A stretch of DNA of 64,000 bases from an uncultured Gemmatimonadota bacterium (lineage in GTDB: Bacteria > JAAXHH01): the NCBI GenBank assembly GCA_951812955.1, contig OX638340.1, forward strand, positions 2,240,001-2,304,000, read 5' to 3'. A program made the translations under genes and the position numbers. Within the stretch, counting starts at the first letter, position 1, and the number at the start of each line of letters is the position of its first letter. Shown in pieces: positions 2,119 to 17,770 of this stretch. The notes beneath the pieces were generated by a model, which made no database searches, was not told where the DNA came from, and was given only the letters and a program-made list of their open reading frames with translations.

Positions 2119-3717
2119 ATGGATCCATCAACGCGTCTGAGGACCAGGGATTGGCAGATCATGCCACACGATTCACAGCCAACAGACACGATCTGGTACT
2201 GCATTCGGCGAAATGGCATCGCGAAAGATGAAGGCTGGATCGGCGATGTCACGCTGGATGACTTGCCGAATCAGGTGGGCGTTGAACCGGGTGATACGTT
2301 CGAAGTTTGTATCGCTTCAGACTTTCAAACTGTACCGCCTGACCAGATATCCAGCTTCTTCTACAACCGGGACCGCGGGATTGTCGGCTTGGAGATGGCT
2401 TACGGTGATGAGACCTTGCGAATCGCGCCTACTCGAATGATCGCAGCGAATCTCGGGTTTGCCCGGGCCATGGAGAGATTCCGTCAACAGTTAAACATAA
2501 GCGCTGACGAATTCGCCACCAACGGCAGGCTGCGTGTTTTTTCCGCCAGGCAGGTCCTGGTACCGGGCGGAAGCATACCTGACCGAATGGAACTACATCG
2601 TGGATCAACACTCGTGACCGAGGCTCCGTCGGATGGCAGGGACCGAGCTGAGGTGCTGGCCTGTGGAATTAGTCGGTGGATGCTTCGAAATATGTCCGAG
2701 GATGGCGCGTTGCCCTACAAATACTGGCCTAGCCGGGGTAAAGAATCTCCGGCCGATAACGCCATTCGCCGGTTTCTTGCATCCCTGGCCCTTGAACGTC
2801 ACGGTAGATATTTCGATGACAAAGAAATTCGTGAGGCGGCCCGGCGCAACCTGGGCTTCAATCTGAAGCGGAATTTCAGGGTCATCGGCGGTGGAATAGG
2901 CGCCATAGTGGAACCAACAGGAGCGAAGCTTGGTGCGGCGGCGCTGGCCGCTTTGTGTATACTGGAGAGCCCGGCATTCAGTGATTTCAAGACCGAGTAC
3001 GACATGCTGACCGCTGGTGTGAACTCACTTGCGGATAAGGAAATGGGATTTCGTACATTCTTCTTTCCACCCGAACGCGACGGAGAAAACTGGAATTTCT
3101 ATTCGGGGGAAGCACTACTGTTCTGGGCCGAGGCCATGCGCCATGGCGCGCCGGGTGCCCCTACGCTGGAACGCTGCGCCGAGACTTTTGATAAGTGCCG
3201 GGAACGGCATTTTCGGGCACGGAACCCCGCTTTCGTTCCGTGGCATATACAGGCCTGCACATCCCTGTTCAAACAAACAAGGCGGCGTGAGTTCGTCGAT
3301 TTTGTGTTTGAGATCAGCGACTGGCTACTACCAATGCAGCAGTGGGACGGAATGTTGCCGGACCTTCGCGGTCGGTTCTACAATCCAAAACGACCGGATT
3401 TTGGACCGCCACACGCGGCTTCCACCGGAGCCTACCTCGAAGGTCTTGCGGACGCCTCGATGTTGGCGCAAATGGTAGGAGACTGTCCCCGTGCCAAAGC
3501 ATACCAACGAGTCGTAAACCGTGGGCTGCGTTCTCTACGTCAACTGCAGTTCCGCGATGCCTGCGACACTTTCTATATTTCAAAGAAACACCGTGTCATG
3601 GGCGCGATCCGTACGGAAGCCTACGACAATTCAGTTCGAGTCGACTCGGCAGCGCACGCCCTGATCGCGGCAGTAAAATGGCTGAAATCAGGACGTACTC
3701 ATTCGGTCGGCGCGTAG
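2119..3717 (+). CDS. hypothetical protein (possible alpha/alpha-toroid enzyme; function unassigned)
   Basis: 532-aa ORF, 72 bp after the permease gene on the same strand, with visibly lower GC than the permease genes. I can name no catalytic motif. Aromatic-rich helix-pair-like segments (FYSGEALLFWAEAMRHG, STGAYLEGLADASMLA) are only weakly suggestive. Confidence 0.35.
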   Translation: MDPSTRLRTRDWQIMPHDSQPTDTIWYCIRRNGIAKDEGWIGDVTLDDLPNQVGVEPGDTFEVCIASDFQTVPPDQISSFFYNRDRGIVGLEMAYGDETLRIAPTRMIAANLGFARAMERFRQQLNISADEFATNGRLRVFSARQVLVPGGSIPDRMELHRGSTLVTEAPSDGRDRAEVLACGISRWMLRNMSEDGALPYKYWPSRGKESPADNAIRRFLASLALERHGRYFDDKEIREAARRNLGFNLKRNFRVIGGGIGAIVEPTGAKLGAAALAALCILESPAFSDFKTEYDMLTAGVNSLADKEMGFRTFFFPPERDGENWNFYSGEALLFWAEAMRHGAPGAPTLERCAETFDKCRERHFRARNPAFVPWHIQACTSLFKQTRRREFVDFVFEISDWLLPMQQWDGMLPDLRGRFYNPKRPDFGPPHAASTGAYLEGLADASMLAQMVGDCPRAKAYQRVVNRGLRSLRQLQFRDACDTFYISKKHRVMGAIRTEAYDNSVRVDSAAHALIAAVKWLKSGRTHSVGA

Positions 3718-4334
3718 ATGTAGTGCCCGCGTCCTTTCTCCGGCAGCACGTCGAAAATCAAGTGCACCCGTGGTTCGTTTGTCGGGTTTCTCGCTTCGTG
3801 CAGCGCCTTGTTGTCGAACACCCACAGCTCGCCTTCCCGCATCACTATGGTTTCACCTTCTGCGGTCATTGGACTCCCCTCCGGGCTCCTCAGCACAAGG
3901 TGGTATCGATCACGTATTCGGTAGTAAGCGCCGGCGTCGGTATGAGGTCGAACCCACCCCTGAGGTTGCAAGGATACCAGTGTAGCGCGTCCAAGTACAC
4001 CCCGATGAAGCGTGGCGATCTCTTTACAGAACGCCAGCGTTCGGGGGAATTTTCTAGCAGTAGCAGTAGTGCGACTGTCATGGACGTCGTTGGCGTTTTT
4101 CGCTCCTGGAGGCAGTGGTTTTTTAGCGGTACGCAGAAAGATATTTTGGGTGTCGCGTTGACAACGAACCTTGCGTTGCCGACTGGTATCGGCGAGCCAA
4201 AGATCTGGTACTGTGTCCAATTCCAGCATTAGCGGTTCAATATCGATGCCCGTCGCGATCCGGGTGAAACGCTTACCTGCCGGTGACACATCATTTGATT
4301 CTTTACCGGGAATCACATCGGTCTTGTGTATCAC
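3699..4334 (-). CDS. aspartyl/asparaginyl beta-hydroxylase-family cupin (2OG/Fe(II) oxygenase)
   Basis: 211-aa ORF with the family-typical core VRPHTDAGAYYRIRDRYHLVL ... GELWVFDNKALHEARNPTNEPRVHLIFDV (H-x-D ... H iron ligands). No hydrophobic TM segment. The GTG start at 4334 is uncertain. The 3-prime end overlaps the convergent gene 2119-3717 by 19 bp. Confidence 0.7.
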   Translation of the reverse strand: MIHKTDVIPGKESNDVSPAGKRFTRIATGIDIEPLMLELDTVPDLWLADTSRQRKVRCQRDTQNIFLRTAKKPLPPGAKNANDVHDSRTTATARKFPRTLAFCKEIATLHRGVLGRATLVSLQPQGWVRPHTDAGAYYRIRDRYHLVLRSPEGSPMTAEGETIVMREGELWVFDNKALHEARNPTNEPRVHLIFDVLPEKGRGHYIYAPTE

Positions 4335-4469
4335 AAACGACCACCCTTACCGCCATATGCCAATGGGATTGATCAGCACCATCTCAGTATTCAACACAAG
4401 TAGTTACGTATGCTGGAGCCAGCTCAACAGGCCAGAAAGTACACGTTCGGTTAATCGAACAGCCATGAA

Positions 4470-5483
4470 TCAGTCGTCATCGTCGTCATCTTTATCATCG
4501 TCGTCATCGTCATCGTCGTCATCGTCGTCATCATCATCGCCGTCGCCATCCCCGTCACCATCCCCGTCGCCATCGCCATCGCCATCGCCGTCACCATCGC
4601 CGTCGCCATCCCCGTCTCCATCACCATCACCGTCGCCATCTCCATCACCATCGCCGTCACCGTCGCCATCCCCATCGCCGTCCCCATCTCCATCGCCGTC
4701 GCCGTTACCTCCAGAGTTCCCACTGGGCGGTGGACTTAACTCTTCATCGCCGTCGCCATCCCCATCGCCGTCTCCATCACCACTGGGCGGTGGACTTAAC
4801 ACTTCGTCACCGTCGCCATCCCCGTCGCCATCCCCGTCTCCATCACCGTCGCCATCCCCGTCTCCATCACCGTCGCCATCGCCATCCCCATCGCCATCGC
4901 CATCACCGTCGCCATCGCCATCCCCATCGCCATCGCCGTCACCATCCCCATCACCATCACCGTCGCCATCACCGTCGCCATCCCCGTCCCCATCTCCGTC
5001 GCCATCCCCGGCCCCGTCCCCATCGCCATCGCCGTCACCATCGCCGTCGCCATCCCCGTCTCCATCACCGTCCCCATCACCGTCGCCATCCCCGTCCCCA
5101 TCACCATCACCGTCACCATCGCCGTCACCGTCACCATCGCCGTCCCCATCGCCACCATTTGAACTTGTGGTATTTGTTACCACACTTGCGTTGTCCTCGT
5201 TATTGCTACCTGCATCCCCGTTCCCATCCCCATTTCCGTTCCTATCTCCATTTCCGTCACCATCTCCATCTCCATCGCCATCTCCGTCCCCGTCGCCGTC
5301 CCCATCGCCGCTGCCACCCGGACTCTGAGCACTCCCCACCTGATTCGCACTCGTGGCGAATCCAGACCCTGATCCCATGGGGTTCAGATCGTTGTCCCCT
5401 CTGCAACCCAGGATCATGAGCAACGAAGCGACAGTCAGTTGCATTCTTCGCAACCATTGCATAATGGTTCGGCACAAGGCCAT
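4470..5483 (-). CDS. poly(Gly-Asp) repeat lipoprotein with poly-Asp C-terminal tail
   Basis: 337-aa ORF. The N-terminus MQWLRRMQLTVASLLMILGC has a basic n-region, a hydrophobic core and a lipobox-like ILGC. Blocks of (GD)n follow, broken by two SPPPSG linkers, and the protein ends in DDDDDDDDDDDDDDDKDDDDDD. Codon degeneracy supports this frame over the opposite-strand (SP)n frame (see findings). Alternative starts lie at Met8 or Met14. Confidence 0.65.
   Translation of the reverse strand: MALCRTIMQWLRRMQLTVASLLMILGCRGDNDLNPMGSGSGFATSANQVGSAQSPGGSGDGDGDGDGDGDGDGDGDGNGDRNGNGDGNGDAGSNNEDNASVVTNTTSSNGGDGDGDGDGDGDGDGDGDGDGDGDGDGDGDGDGDGDGDGDGDGDGDGAGDGDGDGDGDGDGDGDGDGDGDGDGDGDGDGDGDGDGDGDGDGDGDGDGDGDGDGDGDGDGDGDGDGDEVLSPPPSGDGDGDGDGDGDEELSPPPSGNSGGNGDGDGDGDGDGDGDGDGDGDGDGDGDGDGDGDGDGDGDGDGDGDGDGDGDGDGDGDDDDDDDDDDDDDDDKDDDDDD
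4473..5311. repeat. hexanucleotide coding repeat, plus-strand pattern (R)TC(N)CC = minus-strand GGN-GAY
   Basis: A period-6 repeat runs through almost the whole gene. A 20-nt element cactgggcggtggacttaac occurs twice, exactly 60 bp apart (4721-4740 and 4781-4800). Confidence 0.95.
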
Positions 5484-5817: not shown

Positions 5818-6177
5818 CTAAGGCTTGTCGATCCAGACCGGATCCGGCGTGATGCTCGTCTCTGGCGGCGGCCCGGTATCGGTCCATTCTTCCTCGTTCT
5901 CGAGGAGGAATCCGGGTTCGACCGACATGTCGTGATCGCAGATGATCTGGCAGGACAACCGTACCTCGCCGACCAGCCCTTTCTCGGAAAGTACCGCGTG
6001 CTCGGCCTCGGTCATCGTGTCCGGCTCGCCCTCACTGATGGTCACCCGGCAGGTTGTGCACTTGGCGTTCCCACCGCACCGGTGGCCGATGTTCACCCCG
6101 GTGCCCTCGATAGCCAGTACCAGACGCTGCCCGGAATCGACTTCGTTCTCCACTCCGTTGACGGTAAGTTTCGGCAT
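5818..6177 (-). CDS. 2Fe-2S ferredoxin
   Basis: 119-aa ORF with the cluster-binding pattern HRCGGNAKCTTCRV ... RLSCQI (C-x5-C-x2-C ... C). Confidence 0.8.
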   Translation of the reverse strand: MPKLTVNGVENEVDSGQRLVLAIEGTGVNIGHRCGGNAKCTTCRVTISEGEPDTMTEAEHAVLSEKGLVGEVRLSCQIICDHDMSVEPGFLLENEEEWTDTGPPPETSITPDPVWIDKP

Positions 6178-6274
6178 GATTCCCTGCTCCTTTCGCGTGT
6201 GTGCTAAACCAGTCTCAAGTGGGTTGTGACTCCATCTCGATCGAATTCAGTACAAGTATCTCCGTTTGCTACGA

Positions 6275-7066
6275 TTAAATAACGTGACCCAGCCGGTCCC
6301 GAGTATGTTCCAGGTCCACCCAGCGATGCGGTCCGTCGGTTACAGCGTAGCACACCTCGTAGACCGGATTCTCCGTGGCCTGCAGGGCCAGTTCGATGAT
6401 CCGCGTGATGTCCGCCTGGCTGCACCAGACCGATCGCAGGAAGGGTTCTGTTGCCTCGTTCTCCTTGTTGACCCATCCGATGCGAAGGCAGACGACGGAA
6501 AAATCGTGGGCATCATGGTAGGTGCGGCAGATCCCCTCGCCCCAGATCTTGCTGGCGGAATAGGGTTCCGTGGGCCGCGGCGGATCGGTGACCTTGACGA
6601 TAGGCATGGGATCGGGCAGCCCCTCCAGACGGCCCTTCAGTAGCGACACGTACGGTTCGTCAAATTGACCGTATCCCCAACTCGCCATGACGGAACTCGC
6701 GTAGATCATTCGCCTGATGCCCTGTTCCCGGCAGACCTCCAGCACGTTGTAGGTACCCCGGATGTTGGCGTCCAGAATGGTCTCGAAGGACGCGCCCGGA
6801 TCGGGGACGGCGCCGAGATGGACCACGGCGTCCATGCCCTCGAGAGCCCTGGACACGGCATCGCGATCGGTCAGATCGGCCAGTGAGAATCGATCTTCCG
6901 GGATGCGCAGGAGATCCTCGTCGTCGATGCGGTCCGACGACACGGTCCGGCGGCCGCTGCCGTAGGCTTCGTACTCATCCTTTCCGCTCAGATACCTGTA
7001 GGTCAGGTTGCCGATCAGTCCGTACGCTCCTGTTACGTGGACCTTCAAGGGTGTTCCTTCGCTCAT
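6275..7066 (-). CDS. NAD(P)-dependent epimerase/dehydratase (extended SDR)
   Basis: N-terminal Rossmann motif VHVTGAYGLIGNL and catalytic YxxxK (PYSASKIWGE). Confidence 0.8.
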   Translation of the reverse strand: MSEGTPLKVHVTGAYGLIGNLTYRYLSGKDEYEAYGSGRRTVSSDRIDDEDLLRIPEDRFSLADLTDRDAVSRALEGMDAVVHLGAVPDPGASFETILDANIRGTYNVLEVCREQGIRRMIYASSVMASWGYGQFDEPYVSLLKGRLEGLPDPMPIVKVTDPPRPTEPYSASKIWGEGICRTYHDAHDFSVVCLRIGWVNKENEATEPFLRSVWCSQADITRIIELALQATENPVYEVCYAVTDGPHRWVDLEHTRDRLGHVI

Positions 7067-7194
7067 CGATTCCTCCAGTTTAACTTCGGCAGATTGGTCG
7101 TACTACTTCTCCAACATACGATTACGCAAAAGTCGAATCATGCCTGCTTAAGATGTCTCGCTCTTCAGTCAGTGAATTTCGGTAATGGCCCTGC

Positions 7195-8826
7195 TCAGGC
7201 CTCGTCCATGAAAGGATAGCGCCAGTCCGTCGGCGGGACCATAGTTTCCTTGATCGTCCGGGCGCTCATCCACCGCAGCAGGTTCATCGGACTGCCCGCC
7301 TTGTCGTTCGTTCCGGACGCCCGGGCGCCACCGAAGGGCTGCTGTCCGACGACGGCCCCGGTGGGCTTGTCGTTGACGTAGAAATTACCGGCCGAGTTGC
7401 GGAGCGCATCCGATATGCGGACGATGGCTTCGCGGTCCTGCGCGAAGACGGAGCCGGTCAGGGCGTAGGGTGACGTGCCGTCGCAAAGCGTAAGCGTATC
7501 TTCCAACTGGTCGTCTTCGTAAACGTAGATCGTGAGCACGGGACCGAAGATTTCTTCTTCCATGGTTTTGAAACGCGGGTTCGTCGTCACGATTGTCGTC
7601 GGTTCGACGAACCAGCCTCGCTCGCGGTCGCAAACGCCGCCCGTGATGATCTCGGCGTCATCCGCCGAACGGGCGTATTCGATGTGACCGGCGATGTTTT
7701 CGAAGGAGGCCTCGTCGATCACGGCCGCCATGAAGTTGGTGAAGTCTTCGGGATCTCCCATCTTGATCTGCGAAGCTTCCGCCGTGAACCGATCCCTGAA
7801 TGCCGGCCACAGGGAACGGGGAATGTACATCCGGGAGGCCGCGGAACACTTCTGCCCCTGGTATTCGAAGGCGCCGCGTACCGCCGCCGCGACGAGGGCT
7901 TCCACGTCCGCTGAGGCGTGGACGAAGATGAAGTCCTTCCCTCCCGTCTCGCCCACGATGCGAGGGTAGTGCCTCATGCGCTCAAGGTTGCCCGCCACCG
8001 TGCGGTACATCCGCTGAAAGGTCTCTGTCGAACCGGTGAAATGGATCCCTGCCAGATCCGGGCTGTTCAGCACCGGATCGCCCACTTCGGCCCCGGATCC
8101 CGGGATGAAGTTAATCACGCCGGGGGGCAAACCGGCTTCTTGCAGCAGCCGCATGACGTGCCACGCCGAATAAACGGCCGAGGATGCCGGCTTCCAGAGG
8201 ACCGAGCAGCCGGTCAGCGCCGGCGCCGTGGGCAGGTTGCCGCCGATGGCCGTGAAATTGAACGGGGTTACGGCAAAGACGAACCCCTCGAGGGCCCGGT
8301 ACTCCAGTCGGTTCCACACCCCGACAGAGGATGCCGGCTGGTCGCTCATGAGCTGCGCGAGGTAGCTGACGTTGAATCGCCAGAAATCGATCAGTTCGCA
8401 GGCCGAATCGATCTCGGCCTGGTAGATCGTCTTGGACTGGCCCAGCATGGTGGCGGCGTTGACCGTCTGGCGCCAGGGACCGGCCAGCAAGTCCGCCGCT
8501 TTCGCTATAACCGACGCCCGGTGCTCCCAGGGCATATCCGCCCACGCGGCGCGGGCTTCCAGGGCCGCATCGATCGCCATACGGACCTCGACCGCTCCCG
8601 CTTTGTGATAGACGCCGAGATCGACTGTGTGATCGTGAGGCGCCCGTAGCGGTGCCGTGTTACCCGTCTTCACTTCGCGCCCGCCGATGATCAGTGGGAC
8701 CTCGACAGGCGAGGATTTCAACTCACCGAGCTTCGCCTTGACGGCGGCTCGTTCGGCCGATCCGGGCGCGTAGTCCAGTACCGGCTCGTTGTAGGGCTGA
8801 GGCGGGTTGAAGCGTGCGTTGGCCAT
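7195..8826 (-). CDS. pruA: L-glutamate gamma-semialdehyde (1-pyrroline-5-carboxylate) dehydrogenase
   Basis: Aldehyde dehydrogenase motifs (FTGSTETF, ETGGKDF, catalytic Cys in EYQGQKCSAASR) and the family-typical N-terminus MANARFNPPQPYNEPVLDYAPGS. I chose the ATG at 8826 rather than the ORF-track start at 8958. Confidence 0.85.
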   Translation of the reverse strand: MANARFNPPQPYNEPVLDYAPGSAERAAVKAKLGELKSSPVEVPLIIGGREVKTGNTAPLRAPHDHTVDLGVYHKAGAVEVRMAIDAALEARAAWADMPWEHRASVIAKAADLLAGPWRQTVNAATMLGQSKTIYQAEIDSACELIDFWRFNVSYLAQLMSDQPASSVGVWNRLEYRALEGFVFAVTPFNFTAIGGNLPTAPALTGCSVLWKPASSAVYSAWHVMRLLQEAGLPPGVINFIPGSGAEVGDPVLNSPDLAGIHFTGSTETFQRMYRTVAGNLERMRHYPRIVGETGGKDFIFVHASADVEALVAAAVRGAFEYQGQKCSAASRMYIPRSLWPAFRDRFTAEASQIKMGDPEDFTNFMAAVIDEASFENIAGHIEYARSADDAEIITGGVCDRERGWFVEPTTIVTTNPRFKTMEEEIFGPVLTIYVYEDDQLEDTLTLCDGTSPYALTGSVFAQDREAIVRISDALRNSAGNFYVNDKPTGAVVGQQPFGGARASGTNDKAGSPMNLLRWMSARTIKETMVPPTDWRYPFMDEA

Positions 8827-9095
8827 GATCCATATGTACCCGCCGCGGGGCCGATGTGTCAACTGTTTTGTAGGCCTTCCATGCGGCTGGAGGATCGGCG
8901 AATCAACGGCCGTTGGACGAGCGGACAGACGGCGGACAGACACTGCCGGACGGGCCATTTTAGCCTTGCCAGATCCTGCGGGGAAATGAGATATTGAGGT
9001 TATAGGCCAAAGCCAGACACGCGAATCATAAGAGCAGGATCAACCAGGTTCGCGGCAGCCCAGGAATTGCAGCCGCCCGGACCGGAGGTACGGTC

Positions 9096-10184
9096 ATGAG
9101 CACCGATCAAGCTGACCAGGAACACGGCATCAAGGCGGTCAACCAGGAATTCACGCAATACGACCAGGTGAAGAAGGAACAGACCTACAACCTGGCCGAA
9201 GGCGCGGCGGAGGAGGAATTCGACGAGGAAACGCAGATCAGGACCTGCGACATGAACCTGTTCCATCACGGCGGACCGGAGGGCAAGGCGCAGTTCGCCC
9301 GGGACATCGGTGAGGCCATGGAGGGCATCGGTTTCGTGATCCTCGAGAACCATGAAATCCCGGCCAGCCTGTACGTCGAGGCCGAGCGCAAGGTAGCCGA
9401 GTTCTTCACGTCCACGCCTATAGCGGATAAGATGAGATACGAGGCCCAGCGGCACGGGTCGGTCAACCAGGGCTACTTCCCCATCAAGCAGACCAGCCGG
9501 ATGCATCCCGATCTCGTCGAGGGCTGGGTATTCTGCCGGCGGGCCTTCAACCTGGGCGAGAACCCGGACTACCGCGAAACGGACTACTGGCCCGCGACCG
9601 GATACGAACCCTTTTTCCGCCAGGTCATCCGGCATCACGAAGGTCTGATCCTGCCCCTCATGCAGAGCATCCTGGCCTATCTCGGCTGTGACTCGACAAT
9701 GTACGACGAGAAACTCACGCGAACGAACTTCGGCTTCCGGCTCAACTACTACCCGCCCATCACCCGGGAGGACGACGAGTCCGGCGCCGGACGCATGCTG
9801 GGCCATGAGGACGTGGACCTGTTCACCATCCTGCCCTCCCACGGGGTGGATGGCCTGCAGGTGCTCAACCGCGAAAACATGAAGTGGATCCGCCTCAATC
9901 CGCCCGAGGGCAGCATCATCATCAACACCGGCGACTACATGCAGCGGATCACCAACGACCGCCTTCCTTCCACCACGCACCGTGTCAGCAAGCCTATCGA
10001 CACCAGTCTCTACGAATCGGCCCGCATCAGCATTCCCATGGCCGTATACGTCTGGGAGGAAGAAATGCTCGAGGTGCTGCCCAACACGGGCGAGCCCAAG
10101 TACGAACCCATCTCCGCCGTCCAGTTCCACACCCGGACCACGAGCAAGTACTACGGCGACGATTATGCGGTGGATGATGATTGA
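9096..10184 (+). CDS. 2-oxoglutarate/Fe(II)-dependent oxygenase (isopenicillin-N-synthase-like family)
   Basis: 362-aa ORF with the facial-triad context GHEDVDLFTILP ... LPSTTHRV and a non-haem dioxygenase N-terminal region. Confidence 0.8.
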   Translation: MSTDQADQEHGIKAVNQEFTQYDQVKKEQTYNLAEGAAEEEFDEETQIRTCDMNLFHHGGPEGKAQFARDIGEAMEGIGFVILENHEIPASLYVEAERKVAEFFTSTPIADKMRYEAQRHGSVNQGYFPIKQTSRMHPDLVEGWVFCRRAFNLGENPDYRETDYWPATGYEPFFRQVIRHHEGLILPLMQSILAYLGCDSTMYDEKLTRTNFGFRLNYYPPITREDDESGAGRMLGHEDVDLFTILPSHGVDGLQVLNRENMKWIRLNPPEGSIIINTGDYMQRITNDRLPSTTHRVSKPIDTSLYESARISIPMAVYVWEEEMLEVLPNTGEPKYEPISAVQFHTRTTSKYYGDDYAVDDD

Positions 10185-10244
10185 CGGGGACTGTTGAATC
10201 GAAATGGCTGATTCGATGTGGACGACGACTGACTAAATCGGGGC
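10161..10244. repeat. diverged tandem copy of the 3-prime end of the 2OG oxygenase gene
   Basis: gattatgcggTGGATGATGATTGAcgggg (contains the stop at 10182-10184) is echoed at 10210-10244 as gattcgatgTGGACGACGACTGActaaatcgggg. Confidence 0.5.
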
Positions 10245-10380
10245 AGAAGCGGACCCTCTTCGAGCATTCGGAAGGTCGACGACCGAAGACGAAGCGATAA
10301 TACGTCTGTCGGCCACCCAGCGGCCCGCGAATGACCACCCGTGGTAGACGACGACAGGCGGGATCCAGGAAAGGCTAAGC

Positions 10381-11136
10381 ATGACTCCCCACGAAAGATA
10401 CCTCTTCGACCTGCAGGGTTTTATCGAGGTCCCGGACGCGTTGGACGCCGGGCAGCTCGCAGAACTGAACGGCATACTGGACGAGAAGATCGACGGGGCC
10501 ATGGCACCCGGCGCCACCACCCACCGATTCGGCTTCACCCTGCTCGACTGGGGACCAACCTACCGGGAACTGATCGACAATCCGCGGATAGATCCTTATC
10601 TGGAACAACTGATCGGTCCGAAGTACCGGCTGGACCACGATTATGCCGATATCATCCGAAAAGGCGACGGTCCAATCGGCACGACCCTCCACGGAGGCGC
10701 CATCCCCTTCGACCCCCTCTACTCCTACACCTGCACCAACGAAGAGATCCGTTGCGGCCTGACTGTGGTCGCCTACTACCTGAAGGACGTAAATCCAGGC
10801 GACGGCGGATTCGGCTGCGTGCCCGGCAGCCATAAGAGCAACTTCCGGTTCCCGGACGAGTGGCGCAACCTCAAGACCGACCAGCCCTTCATCCGCGCCG
10901 TAACCGGCAAGGCCGGCACCGCCGTCATATTCACCGAGGCCCTGACCCACGGCACCATGCCCTGGCACGGTGACGAGCGCCGCACCCTCTTCTACAAGTA
11001 CTCGCCCAATTCGATATCCTGGTACGCGGAATACTATGACGCCGACCGGTACGAAGGTCTGACGGAACGGCAGCAGGAGATCCTTGAGGCACCGAACGCG
11101 CGGTATGGAGAACGGTCTAAGCGTGGGGTTGTGTAG
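10381..11136 (+). CDS. phytanoyl-CoA dioxygenase (PhyH) family protein
   Basis: 251-aa ORF with PhyH-like motifs (TLHGGAIPFD, GFGCVPGSHKSNFRFP, TEALTHGTMPW). Confidence 0.8.
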   Translation: MTPHERYLFDLQGFIEVPDALDAGQLAELNGILDEKIDGAMAPGATTHRFGFTLLDWGPTYRELIDNPRIDPYLEQLIGPKYRLDHDYADIIRKGDGPIGTTLHGGAIPFDPLYSYTCTNEEIRCGLTVVAYYLKDVNPGDGGFGCVPGSHKSNFRFPDEWRNLKTDQPFIRAVTGKAGTAVIFTEALTHGTMPWHGDERRTLFYKYSPNSISWYAEYYDADRYEGLTERQQEILEAPNARYGERSKRGVV

Positions 11137-11214
11137 GTGGGCTTTACGGATAGACCAGTTGATATTACGACCACATTTATTTGCTCATTGATTTACTGTA
11201 TCTCGAGGTTACAA

Positions 11215-11505
11215 ATGGACGTTAAGGAAGCCGTAAGTACGGCCATAAAACATATTGCAGATGTATACTCGGAAGAGGGAATCTCGCATATTGGATTAGA
11301 AGAGGTAGAATACGACGAGATTAACTCACAATGGAACGTGACCGTTGGATTTGCACGTAAGTGGGACTTCCCTACTCCGGTTCTTATCCCCGTATTACCT
11401 TCACCAAGACCAAACCAAAGAACCTACAAAATCGTAGTAATTCGTGATAGAGACAAGAAGGTCACCGCAATGAAGATAAGGGATTTAGCTACGTCGAATG
11501 AATAG
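11215..11505 (+). CDS. small hypothetical protein (candidate antitoxin/partner of the PIN-like gene)
   Basis: 96-aa ORF starting at the ATG at 11215, preceded by gaggtt. Its stop overlaps the next gene's start by 8 nt (ATGAATAG). No recognisable DNA-binding motif. Confidence 0.45.
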   Translation: MDVKEAVSTAIKHIADVYSEEGISHIGLEEVEYDEINSQWNVTVGFARKWDFPTPVLIPVLPSPRPNQRTYKIVVIRDRDKKVTAMKIRDLATSNE

Positions 11506-11968
11506 TGTGCTTATAGATACGAATCTACTTGTCCTTTTGGTTGTAGGATCTACCGATAGAGAGTTTATTAGTCGACATAAACGCACAAAATCGTTCATAC
11601 CCAGAGACTATGACGAACTGACACGTCTGTTGTCGGGATCTCGTGAGTTATGGGTTACTTCTCACTGTCTGGCAGAGACATCGAATCTTCTGAAGCAAAC
11701 CGATAAAACAAAAGCACAGATCTTGTTACATACTCTTGCGGCCTACTGCGATATTGCCCGCGAATCGCATATTCCCAAAGAGACGGTATTTGGATACGAG
11801 AACTACCGCAGACTTGGCGTCACCGACACCGGCTTCATATACTCATCCGAAACAGTCTCTCGATCTATAACAGTAGATTTCAACTTGTACATCGAACTGA
11901 GTAACCTTGGCAGAGAAGTGATAAACTTCCACCACATCCGTGCTTCGTATCTCCAGAATGTCGATTGA
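11498..11968 (+). CDS. PIN-like nuclease domain protein (candidate toxin)
   Basis: 156-aa ORF with an N-terminal VLIDTNLLVLL motif and spaced acidic residues (CLAETSN, GVTDTG, TVDFN), consistent with a PIN-fold active site. Confidence 0.5.
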   Translation: MNSVLIDTNLLVLLVVGSTDREFISRHKRTKSFIPRDYDELTRLLSGSRELWVTSHCLAETSNLLKQTDKTKAQILLHTLAAYCDIARESHIPKETVFGYENYRRLGVTDTGFIYSSETVSRSITVDFNLYIELSNLGREVINFHHIRASYLQNVD

Positions 11969-12089
11969 CACGACGATCACACAGTTTTGCACATTCCAGT
12001 GCTTAGTTTTTGGTCAAGACCAACCTGTAGTTAAAACCAACCAATGGCCCTGAAGAAATCCCAAAATTTGGTAAACACTGCCAGGAGAG

Positions 12090-13034
12090 ATGCCACCTAT
12101 GCTTGACGAATTGGTTGGATGTATCGATGAACTTAAAGATCGTATTTCCAAATACCGAAACTCACTAAATGAGAACGAAACTCGTACTCGAATGCAGTTA
12201 ATAGATCCGCTGCTTCGTGTGCTGGGCTGGGACGTCTCCGATCCACGGTACGTTATCCCAGAATTCAAGGTGTCCGATGGTTGGGCTGACTATGCCTTAT
12301 TGCGGGATGATGGTAAGCCTGCTGCTATGGTGGAAGCTAAAAAACTGGACGAACCGTTAAAGCCCGCACACCGTGCTCAGATGTTGAAATACGCAATTGA
12401 GTTGGGTATCCCATACACTGGTTTGACAGATGGAAATCACTGGGAGTTGTACAATGTTTTCCAACCGGTACCTATGGAGGACAAACAGATCTTGGATGTT
12501 ACTTTATTGGATTCCCACTCCCACGAAAGTGCACTAAAGTTACTGCTGCTCTGGAATCCAAATCTAGACGCCGGCAGCGCGGTGAAAGCAAATGAACCTG
12601 TTCTCGTCGACACTCAGAATGGCGGTTCGATTCCTCCAATAATCGTTCCGCCACCATCGAACTGGAAGGCACTTTCAGATTACGAACCACCAGCAGGAAC
12701 ACCCGCACCTAAGGCTATTAGGCTTTGGGATGACTCAGAAAGAGAAGTGCATCATTGGTATGAAATTCTCACCATAGTAGCCGAAAAGCTCTACAACGAA
12801 AATGTCCTTACATTGGAACATATACCGATTCAATGGGCTAAAAAGACCTATAGTATTCACTCTCAACCAGTACATCCGACCGGCAACAAGTTTGAAAATC
12901 ATAAAGAAATCGGTAACTCGGGATTGTTCGTAAACGTAAATTTAAATACCGGTCAAGTACGAAATAACACCCGGAATCTACTGAAGAAATACAACATTGG
13001 TACAGAGAAGGTTTACCTCAAGGTAGCCGATTAG
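12090..13034 (+). CDS. HsdR_N-type PD-(D/E)xK nuclease-domain protein with an unknown C-terminal domain
   Basis: The N-terminal 130 aa match the type I restriction enzyme R-subunit N-terminal pattern: NENETRTRMQLIDPLLRVLGWD ... WADYALLRDDGKPAAMVEAKKL ... TDGNHWELY. The C-terminal 150 aa are unassigned. Confidence 0.6.
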   Translation: MPPMLDELVGCIDELKDRISKYRNSLNENETRTRMQLIDPLLRVLGWDVSDPRYVIPEFKVSDGWADYALLRDDGKPAAMVEAKKLDEPLKPAHRAQMLKYAIELGIPYTGLTDGNHWELYNVFQPVPMEDKQILDVTLLDSHSHESALKLLLLWNPNLDAGSAVKANEPVLVDTQNGGSIPPIIVPPPSNWKALSDYEPPAGTPAPKAIRLWDDSEREVHHWYEILTIVAEKLYNENVLTLEHIPIQWAKKTYSIHSQPVHPTGNKFENHKEIGNSGLFVNVNLNTGQVRNNTRNLLKKYNIGTEKVYLKVAD

Positions 13035-13447
13035 GTAGTTTCGTTGACCTACCATGTTGAGGAGTGATATTTCTTGATCTCCACAGACAAGGTTAAGGGT
13101 AAACCACAGCATACCTCCTCACTATCAGGCACGGTTCCTCAGTACGTTGAAGCGATATCAGCAACTCGCTAGCTAGCAGCTACCTGCCCCGTCGCATGGA
13201 ATACTGGGTACAAACCGTCTTTCACTTTAGTGGCGATTTGTTCACGGCTCCGTTCGTCAAATACAATTGAGCCCACTAATTCCACCTGTTTACCTCGACA
13301 AACAAGAGTACAGATCAATCACTTCGTATGACAAAACTCATTCAACTTCTATTCGAAATTGGAATCGGTGACCACCACTCAACCTCTGAATCGTGTGAGA
13401 CTGATGAAGATTCGCTGGTACATGGAAAGGATAATGGAGTGTAATTG

Positions 13448-15622
13448 ATGAATTCAACGTCTGAAGAAACCACCACCCGTCCCTGTTGGTTTGTGGGCGC
13501 CAGTTATTCTGGTACGGGCGATCAAACTGAGCGATTTCTCACGGAAGGTATCTGGGAGAACGGCTTCGACAACGATCATCCGGCCGTCGCGATGACCAAA
13601 ACCATTCAGCCCGGAGACCCAATCGCGATCAAGTCCGCCTACGTTCGCAAACACGACCTACCTTTTGACAGTCGCAACCAGTTCGTATCCGTAATGGCGA
13701 TCAAGGCCATCGGGACGGTTTTAGAGAACATCGGTGATGGCCATACCGTTAAGGTTAAATGGAATAAGGAGGTAACTCCGCGAGAATGGTATTTCTTTAC
13801 TAACAGAGGTACAGTTTGGAAAGTATCGCCTGGTAGTGACTGGTATTCCGACGCCCTGATCGGATTCGCGTTCGAGAACAAGCCGCAGGATATCGATCGT
13901 TTCTTAAAAGTGCCGTATTGGAGGGAGAGGTATCGAGGAGACACGCTCAATGATCAACGGTTTGCGTGGACGAGGTTCTACGAGGCCTTTGCGGATAAGC
14001 TGCTCACATATAGGAACAAGCGCTTAGACTTAATAAATGGTATACAAGAAATAGCTGCCAGAGAGTATGCCATGTTGGTTCTGAGGGATCAGTTTCGGGA
14101 CGGTACGATCGGTCCACTCAAAGACATATGCCCATTTACTACCATCGGATTGTTCAATAAGGGAATAACGAATAGCAATCGAAGATCAATTGCATCAGAA
14201 CTCGCTGAATTGCTGGGAGTGTCAGAGTCGGTTCCGGATTCATTCGATGGAATACCTGTTCTCAACAATCAGAATTCCTGGTTTTTTTCGTATGAAAAAA
14301 ACCGACGACCGGAAGATATTGAAATCCTTTGGAATGTTTACTCCCGTGCAATTGCCTTCGCTGATTCAGATGATTCCGATGCGCGATCTGCTTTCGTCTC
14401 TGCTTACGACGACGCATCCGAGGTTTCTCACGTAGGTTGGAAACTTACATTTGGGCTGTATTGGATACGGCCTTGGGATTTCCCCGTCCTCGACACGAAT
14501 ACCCGGCGTTACCTGGACAAGAAACTCAATATTGAGATCGGACTAAATGGACCGAAAAGGGGATACTGTAGTGCGAACGACTACCTGACGGTCCATGACA
14601 CACTTGAAAAGAGGTTTCTGGAGGACACATATCCGGTTCGTTCTTTTCCAGAACTAGCACGCGAAGCCTGGTTGTATAAGCCCGGTGACCCGGATCCCCC
14701 GCCAGATAGCGGTCTGGATCCCCCGCCACCACCTGTCCCTTATTCACTCGATGATATCGTGAAAGACGGCTGTTTCATTGCCAGAGATAAACTCGAGTCG
14801 ATACTCAATCGACTCCGTACCAAGAAAAACCTCATTCTACAAGGCCCTCCAGGAACCGGGAAGACTTGGCTCGCCAGGAAGTTGGCCTACGCTTTGATCT
14901 GTGAGCGAGACGAAAGCAAGGTTCGTTCGGTACAGTTCCATCCCAATCTCTCTTACGAAGATTTCGTACGTGGTTGGCGGCCGGCGGGAGATGGTAAACT
15001 TACGCTCGTAGATGGCCCCTTCATCGCCATAAGGGACGAGGCCGAAAAAGATCCTACTACTCGATACGTCTTGGTCATCGAAGAGATCAACCGGGGCAAT
15101 CCCGCACAGATTTTCGGCGAGATGCTGACATTGTTGGAGACCGACAAGCGAACTCCAGACGAAGCCTTGGAATTGGTTTATTCAAAGACTCCGGATGAGC
15201 GATTCTTTGTTCCTAACAATCTGTTTGTCATCGGGACGATGAACATTGCTGATCGTTCACTGGCACTTGTAGACCTGGCATTACGCCGTAGATTTGCATT
15301 TATCGATCTGGAACCTACCCTTGGCAAGACTTGGCGAGACTGGGTCCATTCTAAAAACGGGATAGATAACGAGACTCTCACCGAAATTGAGCATCGTATA
15401 GATGATCTGAACCGGACGATCTCCAATGATTCCGGTCTTGGCTCGCAATTTCGCTTGGGGCACAGTTATGTGACGCCGCCGTTTGAACAGCCGATTAAAG
15501 ATGGGAGAAAGTGGTACAGGGAAGTCGTTGAAACGGAAATTGGACCACTACTCGACGAATACTGGTTCGAAGACCTCGCGAAATCTAGAAACGCAAAAAA
15601 GAAACTTTTGGATGGTTTTTAG
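13448..15622 (+). CDS. mcrB: McrB-family AAA+ GTPase with a roughly 450-aa non-canonical N-terminal region
   Basis: Walker A ILQGPPGTGKTWLARKLA, FHPNLSYEDFVRGWRP, VLVIEEINRGNPAQIFGEMLTLLE and FVIGTMNIADRSLALVDLALRRRFAFIDL. ATG at 13448, 8 nt after GGAG. A proline-rich linker (PGDPDPPPDSGLDPPPPPVP) precedes the AAA+ module. Confidence 0.85.
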   Translation: MNSTSEETTTRPCWFVGASYSGTGDQTERFLTEGIWENGFDNDHPAVAMTKTIQPGDPIAIKSAYVRKHDLPFDSRNQFVSVMAIKAIGTVLENIGDGHTVKVKWNKEVTPREWYFFTNRGTVWKVSPGSDWYSDALIGFAFENKPQDIDRFLKVPYWRERYRGDTLNDQRFAWTRFYEAFADKLLTYRNKRLDLINGIQEIAAREYAMLVLRDQFRDGTIGPLKDICPFTTIGLFNKGITNSNRRSIASELAELLGVSESVPDSFDGIPVLNNQNSWFFSYEKNRRPEDIEILWNVYSRAIAFADSDDSDARSAFVSAYDDASEVSHVGWKLTFGLYWIRPWDFPVLDTNTRRYLDKKLNIEIGLNGPKRGYCSANDYLTVHDTLEKRFLEDTYPVRSFPELAREAWLYKPGDPDPPPDSGLDPPPPPVPYSLDDIVKDGCFIARDKLESILNRLRTKKNLILQGPPGTGKTWLARKLAYALICERDESKVRSVQFHPNLSYEDFVRGWRPAGDGKLTLVDGPFIAIRDEAEKDPTTRYVLVIEEINRGNPAQIFGEMLTLLETDKRTPDEALELVYSKTPDERFFVPNNLFVIGTMNIADRSLALVDLALRRRFAFIDLEPTLGKTWRDWVHSKNGIDNETLTEIEHRIDDLNRTISNDSGLGSQFRLGHSYVTPPFEQPIKDGRKWYREVVETEIGPLLDEYWFEDLAKSRNAKKKLLDGF

Positions 15623-16743
15623 TGGTGAATGGCCCAGTAGTTAGTACGGCTGACGAGACGATCGAACAGGCCGGGTATATCGGTCGTATCCCTTTACGAA
15701 ATATCTGGCTGCTCATGCTTTACGCCTCTGACCTTTTCAGGCAACTTGATGCGTCTGAATACCGCTCCTTCGAAGATAATCCTGATGACCTGCCCGATCT
15801 GGTTGCCGAGATCCTATCACATGAAGTCGAACGTCGACTAAAGCGAAATCTGAGTTACGGCTACCAATACCGTAACGAAGTGCTCGGACGGGTTCGCGGA
15901 CGTATCGACCTTTTACAAACCGAAGCTCATCAACTACTGCAACGCGGCATGGTCGCCTGTCGATTCGACGAACTGACAATCGACACACCGAGGAACAGGT
16001 ACGTTCGATCCGCCCTCGAGATGATATCCAAATATGTTCGTCGAAAAGACCTGGCTCACCAGTGCAGGTCCCTCGTTGGAAGCCTTAGGCGACAGGGAGT
16101 CGTTGGAGAACGACCTGGGCGTGAGGTGACGTCAGTTGAGCGATACGGTAGACATGACGCTGTTGACCGCAAGATGGTGGATGCGGCTCGTCTTGCCTTC
16201 GAAATGGCCATTCCGACCGAGCAGACCGGTTCCAGGCACCTTCCACTACCGGACCGTGATATAAACTGGATTCGCAGACTCTATGAGAAAGGCGTTGCAG
16301 GATTCTATGATGTGGTACTTTCCAGAAGGGGATGGAATGTGTATCCGGGAACGATTCTCAGATGGCCCACGACAGTCAGAAGTCCGCGAATAGACGGGAT
16401 ACTACCCTCCATGCGGACCGATATTGTGTTGGATCATGTTGACGAAGGCCGACGGATCGTTATAGACACGAAATTCAACTCGGTTTTGTCGAGAGGTTGG
16501 TATCGAAATGAAGGGATACGAAGCGGATACATGTACCAGATCTATGCTTACCTTAGGTCGCAGGAAGAGAGTGGTGATCCGCTTGATTGTAATGCAGAGG
16601 GAATGTTTCTCCATCCGTCGGTTGGTGAGATGTTCAACGAATGGGTAGATATTCAGGGTCATCGGATCCACTTCAATACCGTTGATCTCGCAACCGATAC
16701 ACAGACCATCAGATCGCAGTTGTTGGATGCGGTGAAACCTTAA
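15622..16743 (+). CDS. mcrC: McrC-family nuclease subunit
   Basis: The GTG start overlaps the mcrB stop (TAGTG). C-terminal PD-(D/E)xK motif MRTDIVLDHVDEGRRIVIDTKF followed by YQIYAYL. Confidence 0.75.
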   Translation: MVNGPVVSTADETIEQAGYIGRIPLRNIWLLMLYASDLFRQLDASEYRSFEDNPDDLPDLVAEILSHEVERRLKRNLSYGYQYRNEVLGRVRGRIDLLQTEAHQLLQRGMVACRFDELTIDTPRNRYVRSALEMISKYVRRKDLAHQCRSLVGSLRRQGVVGERPGREVTSVERYGRHDAVDRKMVDAARLAFEMAIPTEQTGSRHLPLPDRDINWIRRLYEKGVAGFYDVVLSRRGWNVYPGTILRWPTTVRSPRIDGILPSMRTDIVLDHVDEGRRIVIDTKFNSVLSRGWYRNEGIRSGYMYQIYAYLRSQEESGDPLDCNAEGMFLHPSVGEMFNEWVDIQGHRIHFNTVDLATDTQTIRSQLLDAVKP

Positions 16744-16834
16744 ACTGACTTTGCTCTCGACATAGTCGTTCCACCAGCCCATTTCCCGCATCCGTTTGGT
16801 GTGTTCGGCAGCTTCGGTAATCTCAAGATTTGAC

Positions 16835-17761
16835 TCACCCCGCCTTCCTGAAGACCTCGAAACGACGGTCCAGCCGGTCCTGGTCCGGATGGTCACGGGT
16901 GCGTGAAGGCAGGTGCAGTCCCGATCCGTCCAGTTGCTTGAGGGCCTGGAGCATGGGACCGTCATCCTTGTCCAGCAGGCGGTCGGATACGTGCAGCCGG
17001 TAGTCGGGATCAATGCCGATCAGGTGGGCGTCAAAGGCCGCATGATGAATCTTGGACAGGGCCAAGCCGTTGGGTACGACGGGTTGTCCCAATGCCTCGT
17101 CGCCATCGGCAATGATGTGGGCGGCATCCAGTAACTGCGTTTCCGGTAGGCCGGTAATGGCACAGCGGCCGCGATAGGCGTGAAGGACAGCCTCGCGGAA
17201 CGTGGCTTGGTGGAGTCGTTCCTTGACCATGCGCAGGGCATACCGCCGCTCTACCGCGTTAATCGGAGCTTCCATCTCGGCCTGGTTGGGGTTCCCAAAG
17301 GCAAGCGTGGACTTGAGCGCGAATCCATCCCAATTGGAGATGAAGGTGGGAATGATCGCCTGATACCGGCTGGGAGACACACCGAGAAAGTAGATCACGG
17401 GAATCTGATTCTCCCAGGCAACCTTTAACCACTGGTTGTCTGCTGCTGCCGGGTCCTGTCCCATGAAGGCGTAGTCCACGGAATCGTTGCCCTCGAAAAT
17501 CTGGCTGTGGACCTGCTTTTGGTCGTCGTACCAGACTCGGCCGCCCGGTCTGGGGTACACGGTCCTGATCGAGAGAAGGTACCGCATCCGGCGCGGCTTG
17601 AATATGCCCCGCTGCGGATTGACAAGGGGGATCCTTTCGCCTTCGAATACGAACCCCGGCGCCAGTTCGTCCCTCGTAAGGTGGCCATGGGTTTCACTCA
17701 GCCGCCGCACGTGATCGAACGCGGCCATCCGCATCCTCGGATCTCGGTCGTCGACGTTCAT
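16835..17761 (-). CDS. HNH endonuclease (HNH_2-type) with an N-terminal putative DNA-reader domain
   Basis: C-terminal half has RGRCAITGLPETQLLDAAHIIADG ... NGLALSKIHHAAFDAHLIGIDPDY. The N-terminal 170 aa are unassigned (GIFKP, VWYDDQ, YAFMG motifs). Confidence 0.8.
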   Translation of the reverse strand: MNVDDRDPRMRMAAFDHVRRLSETHGHLTRDELAPGFVFEGERIPLVNPQRGIFKPRRMRYLLSIRTVYPRPGGRVWYDDQKQVHSQIFEGNDSVDYAFMGQDPAAADNQWLKVAWENQIPVIYFLGVSPSRYQAIIPTFISNWDGFALKSTLAFGNPNQAEMEAPINAVERRYALRMVKERLHQATFREAVLHAYRGRCAITGLPETQLLDAAHIIADGDEALGQPVVPNGLALSKIHHAAFDAHLIGIDPDYRLHVSDRLLDKDDGPMLQALKQLDGSGLHLPSRTRDHPDQDRLDRRFEVFRKAG

Positions 17762-17770
17762 CTCAGTCCT

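Follow-up and report, generated by a model that had tools for sequence, protein, structure and literature searches.

A candidate mobile cassette for the synthesis and modification of a secreted Gly-Asp repeat protein in a Gemmatimonadota genome

In this work we analysed a 64,000-nucleotide stretch of contig OX638340.1 (assembly GCA_951812955.1) of an uncultured Gemmatimonadota bacterium, referred to below as the window, and three neighbouring genes within it. They encode a lipoprotein composed largely of Gly-Asp dipeptides (the carrier), an Fe(II)/2-oxoglutarate (2OG) oxygenase of the PF05118 family (the hydroxylase), and an unannotated protein of 532 residues (p532). On balance we think it probable that the trio is a horizontally mobile cassette by which a Gly-Asp repeat protein destined for secretion is made and modified; this protein would be hydroxylated and bind metal at the cell surface. 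The initial annotation of the window had paired the lipoprotein with the hydroxylase as substrate and enzyme. The linkage of hydroxylase and repeat held in our analysis, but the unit consists of three genes and not two, as p532 was present at every surveyed locus and was found fused to the hydroxylase elsewhere. The features of the cassette in the window are the following.

2119-3717, plus strand: p532, 532 residues, N-terminal α/β domain and (α/α)6 barrel, unannotated; convergent to the hydroxylase gene, with a 19-nucleotide overlap of the 3' ends
3699-4334, minus strand: hydroxylase, Fe(II)/2OG oxygenase of PF05118 (Asp_Arg_Hydrox), 211 residues, isoelectric point (pI) 9.4, predicted cytoplasmic (Pfam, alignment, structure model)
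4335-4469, minus strand: carrier-hydroxylase spacer of 135 nucleotides, with a weak hairpin at 4461-4444 (terminator scan, folding)
4470-5483, minus strand: carrier gene, a pre-lipoprotein of 337 residues and predicted substrate of the cassette (open reading frame (ORF) and translation)
4473-4538, minus strand: C-terminal poly-Asp tail of the carrier, D15-K-D6 (translation)
4536-5309, minus strand: (GD)n region, degenerate in DNA and near perfect as a protein repeat ((GGNGAY)5 matches, TRF)
5403-5483, minus strand: signal peptide and lipobox, residues 1-27 of the carrier, with a PS51257-like match and Cys27 as the predicted lipidated residue

Conservation of the gene neighbourhood

A hydroxylase-based scan, limited to one genome per species, gave 43 loci from five bacterial lineages, in Gemmatimonadota, Acidobacteriota (Vicinamibacteria, Thermoanaerobaculia and Bryobacterales), Gammaproteobacteria and Alphaproteobacteria. 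By our own reading of the record names, nearly all of them are metagenome-assembled genomes (MAGs) from sponges or corals, and one is a cultured organism, Algihabitans albus (L043; NZ_CP159482.1). At 41 of the 43 loci an ORF with a run of at least four GD units stood beside the hydroxylase, so the co-occurrence with acidic repeats for which the initial annotation had suggested a search was indeed found. A p532 homologue (41-92% identity) occupied the same position in all 43 and is the most constant partner in the cassette; this gene had earlier been remarked on only for its low GC content, which was correct, and its role had been missed. In L008 the GD gene has been lost relative to the near-identical sister locus L039, and in L009 no GD ORF was found within ~6 kb upstream of the hydroxylase, an upstream ORF there being transposase-like by eye. 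In L040 (3175-6423) an IS21-type element, composed of a 517-residue transposase and a 249-residue IstB-like ATPase, splits the hydroxylase gene, and an RTX-type GD carrier is still located just upstream of the first hydroxylase fragment. The GD gene is inverted in L005 and L007 yet abuts the hydroxylase. The gap between carrier and hydroxylase at other loci is often 5-15 nucleotides, and L150 has a 26-nucleotide overlap between them instead.

The carriers linked to the hydroxylase fell into at least eight architectures, unrelated to each other outside the repeat. They included small lipoproteins with a poly-Asp C-terminus, 700-residue proteins with a large N-terminal domain, an N-terminally anchored protein of 641 residues, RTX proteins (HemolysinCabind, E = 6e-39), an S8 subtilase (Algihabitans), a B-lectin protein, and proteins with a C-terminal domain that resembled TbpB by eye. 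Because the carriers are unrelated outside the repeat, the association cannot be explained by common descent of one gene, and the link between hydroxylase and repeat is strongly supported as a functional association. Orthologous carriers were present also in complete long-read chromosomes (e.g. L004 and L007). The lipoboxes of homologous carriers read FFVASC, VAAGC and GFFGC, and in the Acidobacteriota carriers the lipobox was followed by an acidic D/E-D-x-D/E-P motif. The Algihabitans carrier (L043, 3795-5519) is an S8 subtilase in which ~47 GD units, a D21 run and a poly-D/E stretch precede the protease domain, and its leader contains an RRRR motif. Judging by the carrier type, export may proceed by the Sec route for the lipoproteins, by a type I secretion system (T1SS) for the RTX proteins, and by the Tat route for Algihabitans.

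The presence of poly-Asp runs tracked the hydroxylase. Runs of at least five Asp residues were found in 29 of 40 hydroxylase-linked carriers, in 6 of 82 GD ORFs collected by a blind scan (see below), and in none of the 7 carriers linked to p532 only (29/40 versus 6/82, Fisher p = 2e-13 with kinship ignored). A hidden divergent oxygenase beside the blind poly-Asp GD ORFs was considered and rejected, as the three inspected loci were phage-like or eukaryote-like.

The pairwise identities of hydroxylase and p532 across the loci were correlated (r = 0.90), and 0 of 2000 permutations in a Mantel test reached this value. As the identities rise and fall together, the sequences indicate that hydroxylase and p532 are inherited and transferred jointly. 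In the window, the GC content at third codon positions (GC3) was 0.587 for p532, 0.557 for the hydroxylase and 0.527 for the repeat gene, compared to 0.76-0.85 for the nine flanking genes tested. Since GC3 is atypical in all three genes, they form one foreign island and entered the genome together. The low-GC patch noticed in the initial annotation thus covers the whole trio (GC3 0.53-0.59). Gemmatimonadota also hold two versions of the cassette, one in L020 and L021 and the other in the window, L001, L002 and L004. The L020 and L021 hydroxylases are ~78% identical to those of Thermoanaerobaculia, so that this phylum seems to have acquired the cassette more than once.

Fusions of the cassette genes

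In ten loci of Thermoanaerobaculia/Multivorans (L014, L015, L017, L019, L023, L024, L028, L029, L034 and L042; six were inspected in detail) carrier and hydroxylase lie in one uninterrupted frame. Without meeting a stop codon, the frame passes from the lipoprotein leader through (GD)n, poly-Asp and a conserved PPWQFVAFAPAA linker into the hydroxylase, and such ORFs were seen in short-read and complete long-read assemblies alike. To fit cytoplasmic modification, the fused proteins would need internal initiation or cleavage of the linker; in L019 and L034 Met codons are rightly placed for internal initiation.

Fusions within the hydroxylase clade were surveyed by a profile search of 1.84 billion cluster representatives, in which 168 relatives of the hydroxylase were obtained at E ≤ 1e-30 and their domains were assigned by local hidden Markov models. 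The clade comprises at least 168 clusters at 50% identity, and at least 7 full-length cluster representatives at this level are fusions of hydroxylase and p532, in both orders. Two hydroxylase domains precede p532 in P0362, P0364, P0370 and P0374, and p532 precedes the hydroxylase in P0376, P0380, P0409 and in additional fragments; in P0509 the hydroxylase is followed by a distant barrel. The gene of the P0362 fusion (L175) is convergent to, and overlaps, the gene of a 618-residue secreted protein with long (GD)n blocks.

Tandem duplication of the hydroxylase domain was common in the clade, and further fusion partners were a GT61 glycosyltransferase, a sulfotransferase, a phosphoribosyltransferase-like region with a PQQ-type β-propeller, and an S11 D-Ala-D-Ala carboxypeptidase (representatives with these other fusions or duplications: P0438, P0391, P0414, P0366, P0390, P0397, P0402 and P0384). 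As GT61 enzymes and sulfotransferases both need a hydroxyl acceptor, fusions with them count for a hydroxylating chemistry. An operon in L176 (3302-13206) includes a p532-hydroxylase fusion together with a C39-ABC exporter, an HlyD-type adaptor, a GT4 glycosyltransferase, an α/β hydrolase and a JmjC/Cupin_8 oxygenase, and it resembles a T1SS cluster or a cluster for peptides that are made by ribosomes and modified after translation (RiPPs).

The carrier

The leader of the carrier has a positive n-region (RR at residues 12-13), a hydrophobic core and a lipobox, TVASLLMILGC at residues 17-27, which fits the PS51257 pattern with Cys27 in the last position. From this leader, the carrier is predicted to be lipidated, and it may be displayed on the surface. 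The repeat consists of 104 GD dipeptides in blocks, with two SPPPSG linkers and the D15-K-D6 C-terminus. These results agree with the initial description of a lipoprotein-type leader, about 100 Gly-Asp dipeptides, two linkers and a tail of 21 Asp with one Lys. The mature protein (310 residues) contains 126 Asp, 119 Gly, one aromatic residue and no Cys, and 98 of the 126 Asp residues have Gly as the next residue.

A hexanucleotide repeat stays open in every frame, and an open frame alone is no proof of coding. The (GGNGAY)5 pattern gave 80 matches in the window, all of them at 4536-5309 on the minus strand, and no match in 100 shuffles. In 100 GD units, nucleotide positions 1, 2, 4 and 5 were invariant and the variation was confined to the wobble positions 3 and 6, where all four Gly codons and both Asp codons were used and 8 of 8 synonymous hexamers were present. 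The longest perfect period-6 run was only 17 nucleotides, and TRF reported periods of 12 and 60 with 72-74% nucleotide match between the units. Because the variation is synonymous in the GD frame only, the repeat is held by selection at the protein level in this frame, and the (SP)n, (HR)n and (AT/VM)n ORFs that overlap it on either strand are its shadows. Based on this synonymous-codon analysis, an explanation of the carrier as a microsatellite or a shadow ORF was rejected.

The number of GD units varied among relatives with 89-92% identical hydroxylases, from 44 in L004 (5374-5865) through 104 in the window to 151 in L001 (6687-7871). Such a spread may reflect rapid expansion and contraction of the repeat or assembly collapse, and many short-read contigs stop inside the repeat. 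The matches of the carrier to TrAA12 in Pfam and to the MSCRAMM families SdrC/SdrD/Clf in NCBIfam were rejected as artefacts, since they involved only the GD/SD-rich linker parts of these families and were far below the NCBIfam cut-offs.

In the spacer between carrier and hydroxylase the terminator scan gave only a weak 6-bp hairpin (4461-4444), no better than in shuffled sequences, and no unusual folding was found (z = 0.5), as expected from the earlier remark that this 135-nucleotide gap has no strong hairpin. The two genes are likely to be co-transcribed, judging by their sequence context. The promoter scan upstream of the carrier found no site resembling sigma-70, the consensus of which is uninformative for this phylum.

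The hydroxylase

The hydroxylase matched PF05118 with 80.4 bits (cut-off 22.6, E = 1.7e-22), the Pfam domains of its 211 residues being PF05118 and cupin and no others, and PF05118 was present in 120 of 120 homologues among the matches listed. The residues H131-x-D133, H179 and R189 were invariant across 32 homologues; by alignment to 4p7w they were assigned as the iron triad and as the basic residue for the C5 carboxylate of 2OG. The structure model (predicted local distance difference test, pLDDT, 81) showed a double-stranded β-helix (DSBH) fold, with Foldseek probability of 1.00 to 4p7w, 7v4f, 5apa and 1e5r. These structural neighbours, which comprise proline hydroxylases, the 7v4f β-hydroxylase and AspH, share 16-21% identity with the hydroxylase. 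Neither a membrane-like segment (maximum 19-residue Kyte-Doolittle mean 0.72) nor a signal peptide was found. The protein is thus the soluble cupin of the Asp/Asn hydroxylase family, with an H-x-D...H core, that the initial annotation had recognized.

Among the NCBIfam models, LpxO gave 28.8 bits (cut-off 500, E = 6e-7) and OlsC 16 bits (cut-off 450, E = 5e-3), and TIGR04531 likewise scored far under its cut-off. We rejected an assignment to LpxO/OlsC on account of scores under the equivalog cut-offs and the lack of membrane segments; by these scores the hydroxylase belongs to no equivalog of lipid A or ornithine-lipid hydroxylases. Because the LpxO, OlsC and TIGR04531 scores are so low and the structural neighbours only 16-21% identical, the hydroxylase is, by sequence comparison, a member of a distinct PF05118 clade, in which its close relatives number in the hundreds at 65-92% identity. 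With the 2-His-1-carboxylate site and the conserved Arg intact, hydroxylation dependent on 2OG and O2 is a plausible prediction.

p532 and its distant relatives

Neither Pfam nor NCBIfam matched p532 or its distant relatives, even at E = 1, and it belongs to no defined CAZy or Pfam family. Single-sequence and profile searches against the sequences in PDB gave no relevant relative, and members of the family are called hypothetical in every source that names one. The family is large, with >850 relatives in one branch and 1,326 matches in a distant branch. Its invariant motifs are FFFPPERDG-NWNFYSGEALL, NPAFVPWH and GPPHAASTGAYLEGL. The structure model (predicted template modelling score, pTM, 0.76) consisted of an N-terminal α/β domain (~25-165) and an (α/α)6 barrel that resembled GH76 mannanases, AGE and cellobiose 2-epimerases and GH88. 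For the N-terminal domain, one of six sequences matched PF01871, weakly (E = 0.022, 14.7 bits, cut-off 25), and Foldseek found 1zq7, which we take to be a structure of the AMMECR1 family, at E = 1e-3 over 170 columns. A profile of 13 N-terminal domains retrieved no AMMECR1 chain among the PDB sequences.

In the window, p532 has no signal peptide and no hydrophobic segment. Because the preceding ABC permease gene stops at 2046 and p532 begins at 2119, there is no room for a leader upstream. Both the hydroxylase and p532 are, by their sequences, cytoplasmic. They are also basic: the median pI was 9.4 for the hydroxylase family and 9.5 for the p532 family (net charge +12), compared to ~5.3 for 24 long ORFs of the window. 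This is the look expected of enzymes that grip a polyanion, and suggests such a role for both.

JGI metagenomes were also scanned blindly for (GGNGAY)12. Among the 120 loci obtained, two carried the full module (L097 and L150) and three a distant p532 relative only (L094, L145 and L146; 32-42% identity). The distant branch of p532 is found in Planctomycetota, Desulfobacterota (Desulfocapsa), Bacillota and Myxococcota, and no member of it is annotated. An N-terminal membrane anchor or signal was present in 9 of 9 inspected members and is absent from the window clade. When members of this branch were picked by the length of their contigs alone, eight contexts were informative, and in 4 of these the gene immediately beside p532 encoded a secreted GD-repeat protein. 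In L164 it is a two-partner-secretion exoprotein, with ShlB as its neighbour, in L168 a Bacillota surface protein, in L171 a protein with an apparent PEP-CTERM tail, and in L172 a lipoprotein with Cys-rich repeats. None of them had a PF05118 gene. A few kb from its p532-like gene and GD surface protein, L168 also encodes (13472-15814) a 780-residue protein that contains an extended (GEDE)n repeat.

From the GD genes that stand beside exported p532 relatives without PF05118, we infer that GD repeats are likely to have had p532 as a partner earlier, and more generally, than the hydroxylase. The ancestral pair was likely a carrier and a convergent, exported p532; in a later clade, presumably aerobic, p532 would have lost its export signal and a cytoplasmic oxygenase would have been inserted between the two genes.

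Comparison with known systems

Human AspH, the type member of PF05118, resembles the hydroxylase in belonging to this family and in its double-stranded β-helix fold. It hydroxylates the β-carbons of Asp and Asn in secreted proteins before they arrive at the surface, and full-length AspH has a highly acidic Ca-binding region upstream of the catalytic domain, loosely like the Thermoanaerobaculia fusion. However, the identity is ~20%, the window hydroxylase is without a TPR domain, and the AspH iron site consists of two His only, unlike the H-x-D...H site found here. The substrates of AspH are disulfide-bonded EGF domains, whereas the carrier has neither Cys nor an EGF domain. The staphylococcal Sdr/Clf adhesins carry Ser-Asp repeats, in which Ser is modified with O-GlcNAc, all along the repeat, by the GT-family enzymes SdgA and SdgB encoded nearby. 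They resemble the carrier as long, acidic, surface-anchored dipeptide repeats with dedicated modifying enzymes in the vicinity. Their repeats are nevertheless Ser-Asp and not Gly-Asp, and NCBIfam scores of ~45-49 bits against cut-offs of 999-2500 give no membership. The (α/α)6 enzymes (GH76, AGE epimerases, GH88/GH105 and class II terpene cyclases) share 8-13% identity with p532, which differs from them by the extra N-terminal α/β domain and by its partners, a protein-type oxygenase and acidic repeats instead of carbohydrate genes.

In the searchable literature we found no account of the cassette, of p532, or of bacterial (GD)n protein-hydroxylase pairs, and the work on SmaO was the sole related match. 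SmaO, encoded in a RiPP cluster of the group-18 graspetides, is an Fe(II)/2OG oxygenase that turns both Asp residues of a GDGDG core into L-erythro-β-hydroxy-Asp. It tolerates no exchange of Asp for Asn, Glu or Ala, and it requires a downstream Gly (Kim et al., JACS 2025; PMC12186529). The statement in the initial annotation that no ribosomal system of this kind was described is outdated in view of SmaO. In the same cluster SmaX, an HD-domain Fe enzyme sometimes fused to SmaO, converts β-hydroxy-Asp to aminomalonate (PMC12186529). Both this system and the window have an Fe(II)/2OG oxygenase beside a ribosomal Asp-Gly substrate and a second adjacent enzyme, and in both the enzymes are sometimes fused. 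The SmaO substrate, however, is a short peptide that depends on a leader and offers two Asp residues as targets, whereas the carrier is a 310-residue lipoprotein with 126 Asp, and the partner is the HD-domain SmaX in the one case and the (α/α)6-barrel p532 in the other. Neither the neighbouring genes in the window nor those in L001 include one with an HD domain. The same paper names CinX/DurX (lantibiotic), CanE (lasso peptide) and YhhC (triceptide) as cases of 2OG-dependent Asp β-hydroxylation of a product encoded in the same cluster (PMC12186529). Each of these enzymes modifies just one Asp of a small cyclic peptide, the precursors are without GD or DG motifs, and the systems have neither a repeat protein nor a p532-like partner.

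Proposed function of the cassette

In the model that we favour, the carrier would be translated in the cytoplasm as a Cys-free, probably disordered polyanion, and the two basic cytoplasmic enzymes would act on its (GD)n/poly-Asp tract. The PF05118 oxygenase, with Fe(II), 2OG and O2, would hydroxylate Asp β-carbons, mostly in the Asp-Gly context that SmaO also requires, and p532 would bind or further process the same tract. The modified chain would then be exported by Sec and lipidated at Cys27, giving a surface-tethered polycarboxylate brush for high-capacity binding of Ca2+/Fe3+ or of host matrix. The oxygenase may have been added for tailoring in an aerobic clade that consists largely of symbionts of sponges and corals. 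The partnership that it joined would be older, with p532 as an exported protein beside GD proteins in anaerobes without the hydroxylase. We infer the modified residue and its position, the chemistry of p532, the order of the steps and the physiological role. The β-hydroxylation of Asp in the carrier is plausible on the grounds of genomic linkage and the SmaO precedent.

A more far-reaching version of this model seems possible to us but doubtful. Here the cassette would make a protein-sized, genetically encoded poly(Gly-β-hydroxy-Asp) with ~100 modified residues, and p532 would found a new class of GD-dedicated enzymes, possibly decorating or rearranging the hydroxylated tract. The result would be a chelating or mineral-directing surface polymer, spread horizontally among sponge and coral symbionts and shaping the Ca/Fe chemistry of the holobiont or host recognition.

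Several observations weigh against the carrier being hydroxylated and displayed in this manner. The best sequence match of the hydroxylase in PDB was a free L-proline cis-4-hydroxylase (E = 3.7e-5), and AspH matched with E ~0.04-0.15 in its catalytic core only (AspH residues ~333-414). Homology, as far as these matches go, leaves the substrate of the hydroxylase unfixed, AspH being no closer than the free-proline hydroxylases. The comparison with SmaO concerns reaction and gene setting. The p532 barrel is a fold of carbohydrate-active enzymes and of no known peptide-modifying enzyme. The topology of the fused Thermoanaerobaculia proteins is awkward, as their leader would drag a 2OG oxygenase outside the cytoplasm. 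No GD run was found within 14 kb of the P0380 fusion (L176), and only 5 of the 120 blind GD loci, many of which were short or non-bacterial contigs, carried p532 or hydroxylase.

Alternative explanations

The hydroxylase and p532 could instead belong to a small-molecule or glycan pathway, e.g. as a free amino-acid hydroxylase with a sugar epimerase or hydrolase, while the GD gene rides along in the island. This would be in line with the best solved-structure relatives of the hydroxylase, which act on free proline or nucleoside-antibiotic intermediates, with the likeness of the p532 barrel to GH76, AGE/cellobiose 2-epimerases and GH88, and with the foreign GC3 of the trio. We consider it improbable, however, as hitch-hiking fails to explain why non-homologous carriers all have (GD)n, why carrier and hydroxylase occur in one frame or the GD adjacency survives inversion, why GD genes stand by distant p532 in other phyla without the hydroxylase, and why both enzymes have a basic pI. 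Carrying more weight, if still unlikely in our judgement, is the possibility that the repeat protein is a partner and not the substrate of hydroxylation. In such a case p532 would serve Asp-Gly tracts as a chaperone, docking receptor or maintenance enzyme, and the oxygenase would modify p532, another protein or a co-secreted molecule. Asp-Gly tracts are chemically prone to the formation of succinimide and isoaspartate, and 98 of 126 Asp residues of the carrier are in this context. Moreover, the p532 family is tied to GD proteins also without the oxygenase, and there it has a membrane anchor or signal, placing it where the secreted GD proteins are. On the other hand, one lineage has direct fusions of carrier and hydroxylase, poly-Asp runs follow the hydroxylase and not p532, and an Fe/2OG enzyme with exactly such Asp-Gly specificity is known (PMC12186529).

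The best NCBIfam matches of the hydroxylase, LpxO (E = 6e-7) and OlsC (E = 5e-3), would suit a lipid hydroxylase acting on lipid A or ornithine lipid and linked to the lipoprotein via envelope remodelling. With 28.8 bits against 500 and 16 against 450, no hydrophobic segment, the occurrence of the module also with T1SS-type RTX carriers and as p532 fusions, and no lipid A genes among the annotated neighbours, such a role is very improbable. Finally, the repeat ORF could be taken for a hexanucleotide microsatellite or an assembly artefact instead of a real gene, given that all six frames are open across the repeat, that many short-read contigs break in such repeats, and that close relatives have 44, 104 or 151 GD units. 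This can hardly be maintained, as it is only in the GD frame that the variation is strictly synonymous. The ORF also has a regular lipoprotein leader as well as linkers and a stop codon, there are orthologues in complete long-read chromosomes (L004, L007), and the protein-level motif is conserved across phyla with differing codons.

Surroundings of the cassette in the window

Directly upstream of the carrier, at 5818-11136, the window encodes a 2Fe-2S ferredoxin, an SDR epimerase, an aldehyde dehydrogenase, a DIOX_N/2OG-FeII_Oxy oxygenase and a PhyH oxygenase, possibly a cluster for the oxidation of small molecules. We rejected these genes as members of the cassette, since their synteny is kept only in the closest relatives, L001 and L004. 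The region 11000-19000 has a GC content of 0.43-0.51 and holds a defence island unrelated to the cassette, which includes an HSDR_N-like protein and the following genes.

13445-15622: McrB-type AAA_5 ATPase
15622-16743: McrC
16835-17761, minus strand: HNH_2 endonuclease
17771-18787, minus strand: HNH_2 endonuclease

Significance

What would be new here is the β-hydroxylation of Asp over a whole ribosomal repeat protein, together with a new family of partner enzymes; the cassette is real, and the chemistry is plausible by analogy. Asp β-hydroxylation has so far been known for single residues in EGF domains and in small RiPPs. If the proposed chemistry is true, this modification extends to whole secreted proteins, at ~100 positions, and would yield a polymer made by ribosomes that is similar to the chelating β-hydroxy-aspartate units found in siderophores and to the acidic proteins of biomineral matrices. 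The cassette provides the first functional context for the widespread, unannotated p532 family and for this PF05118 clade, and the cultured Algihabitans albus (L043), which has a carrier of its own, is tractable for genetics. As the cassette is found mostly in MAGs of sponge and coral symbionts, of four phyla, and was apparently acquired horizontally, it is a candidate trait for symbiosis or for interaction with minerals.

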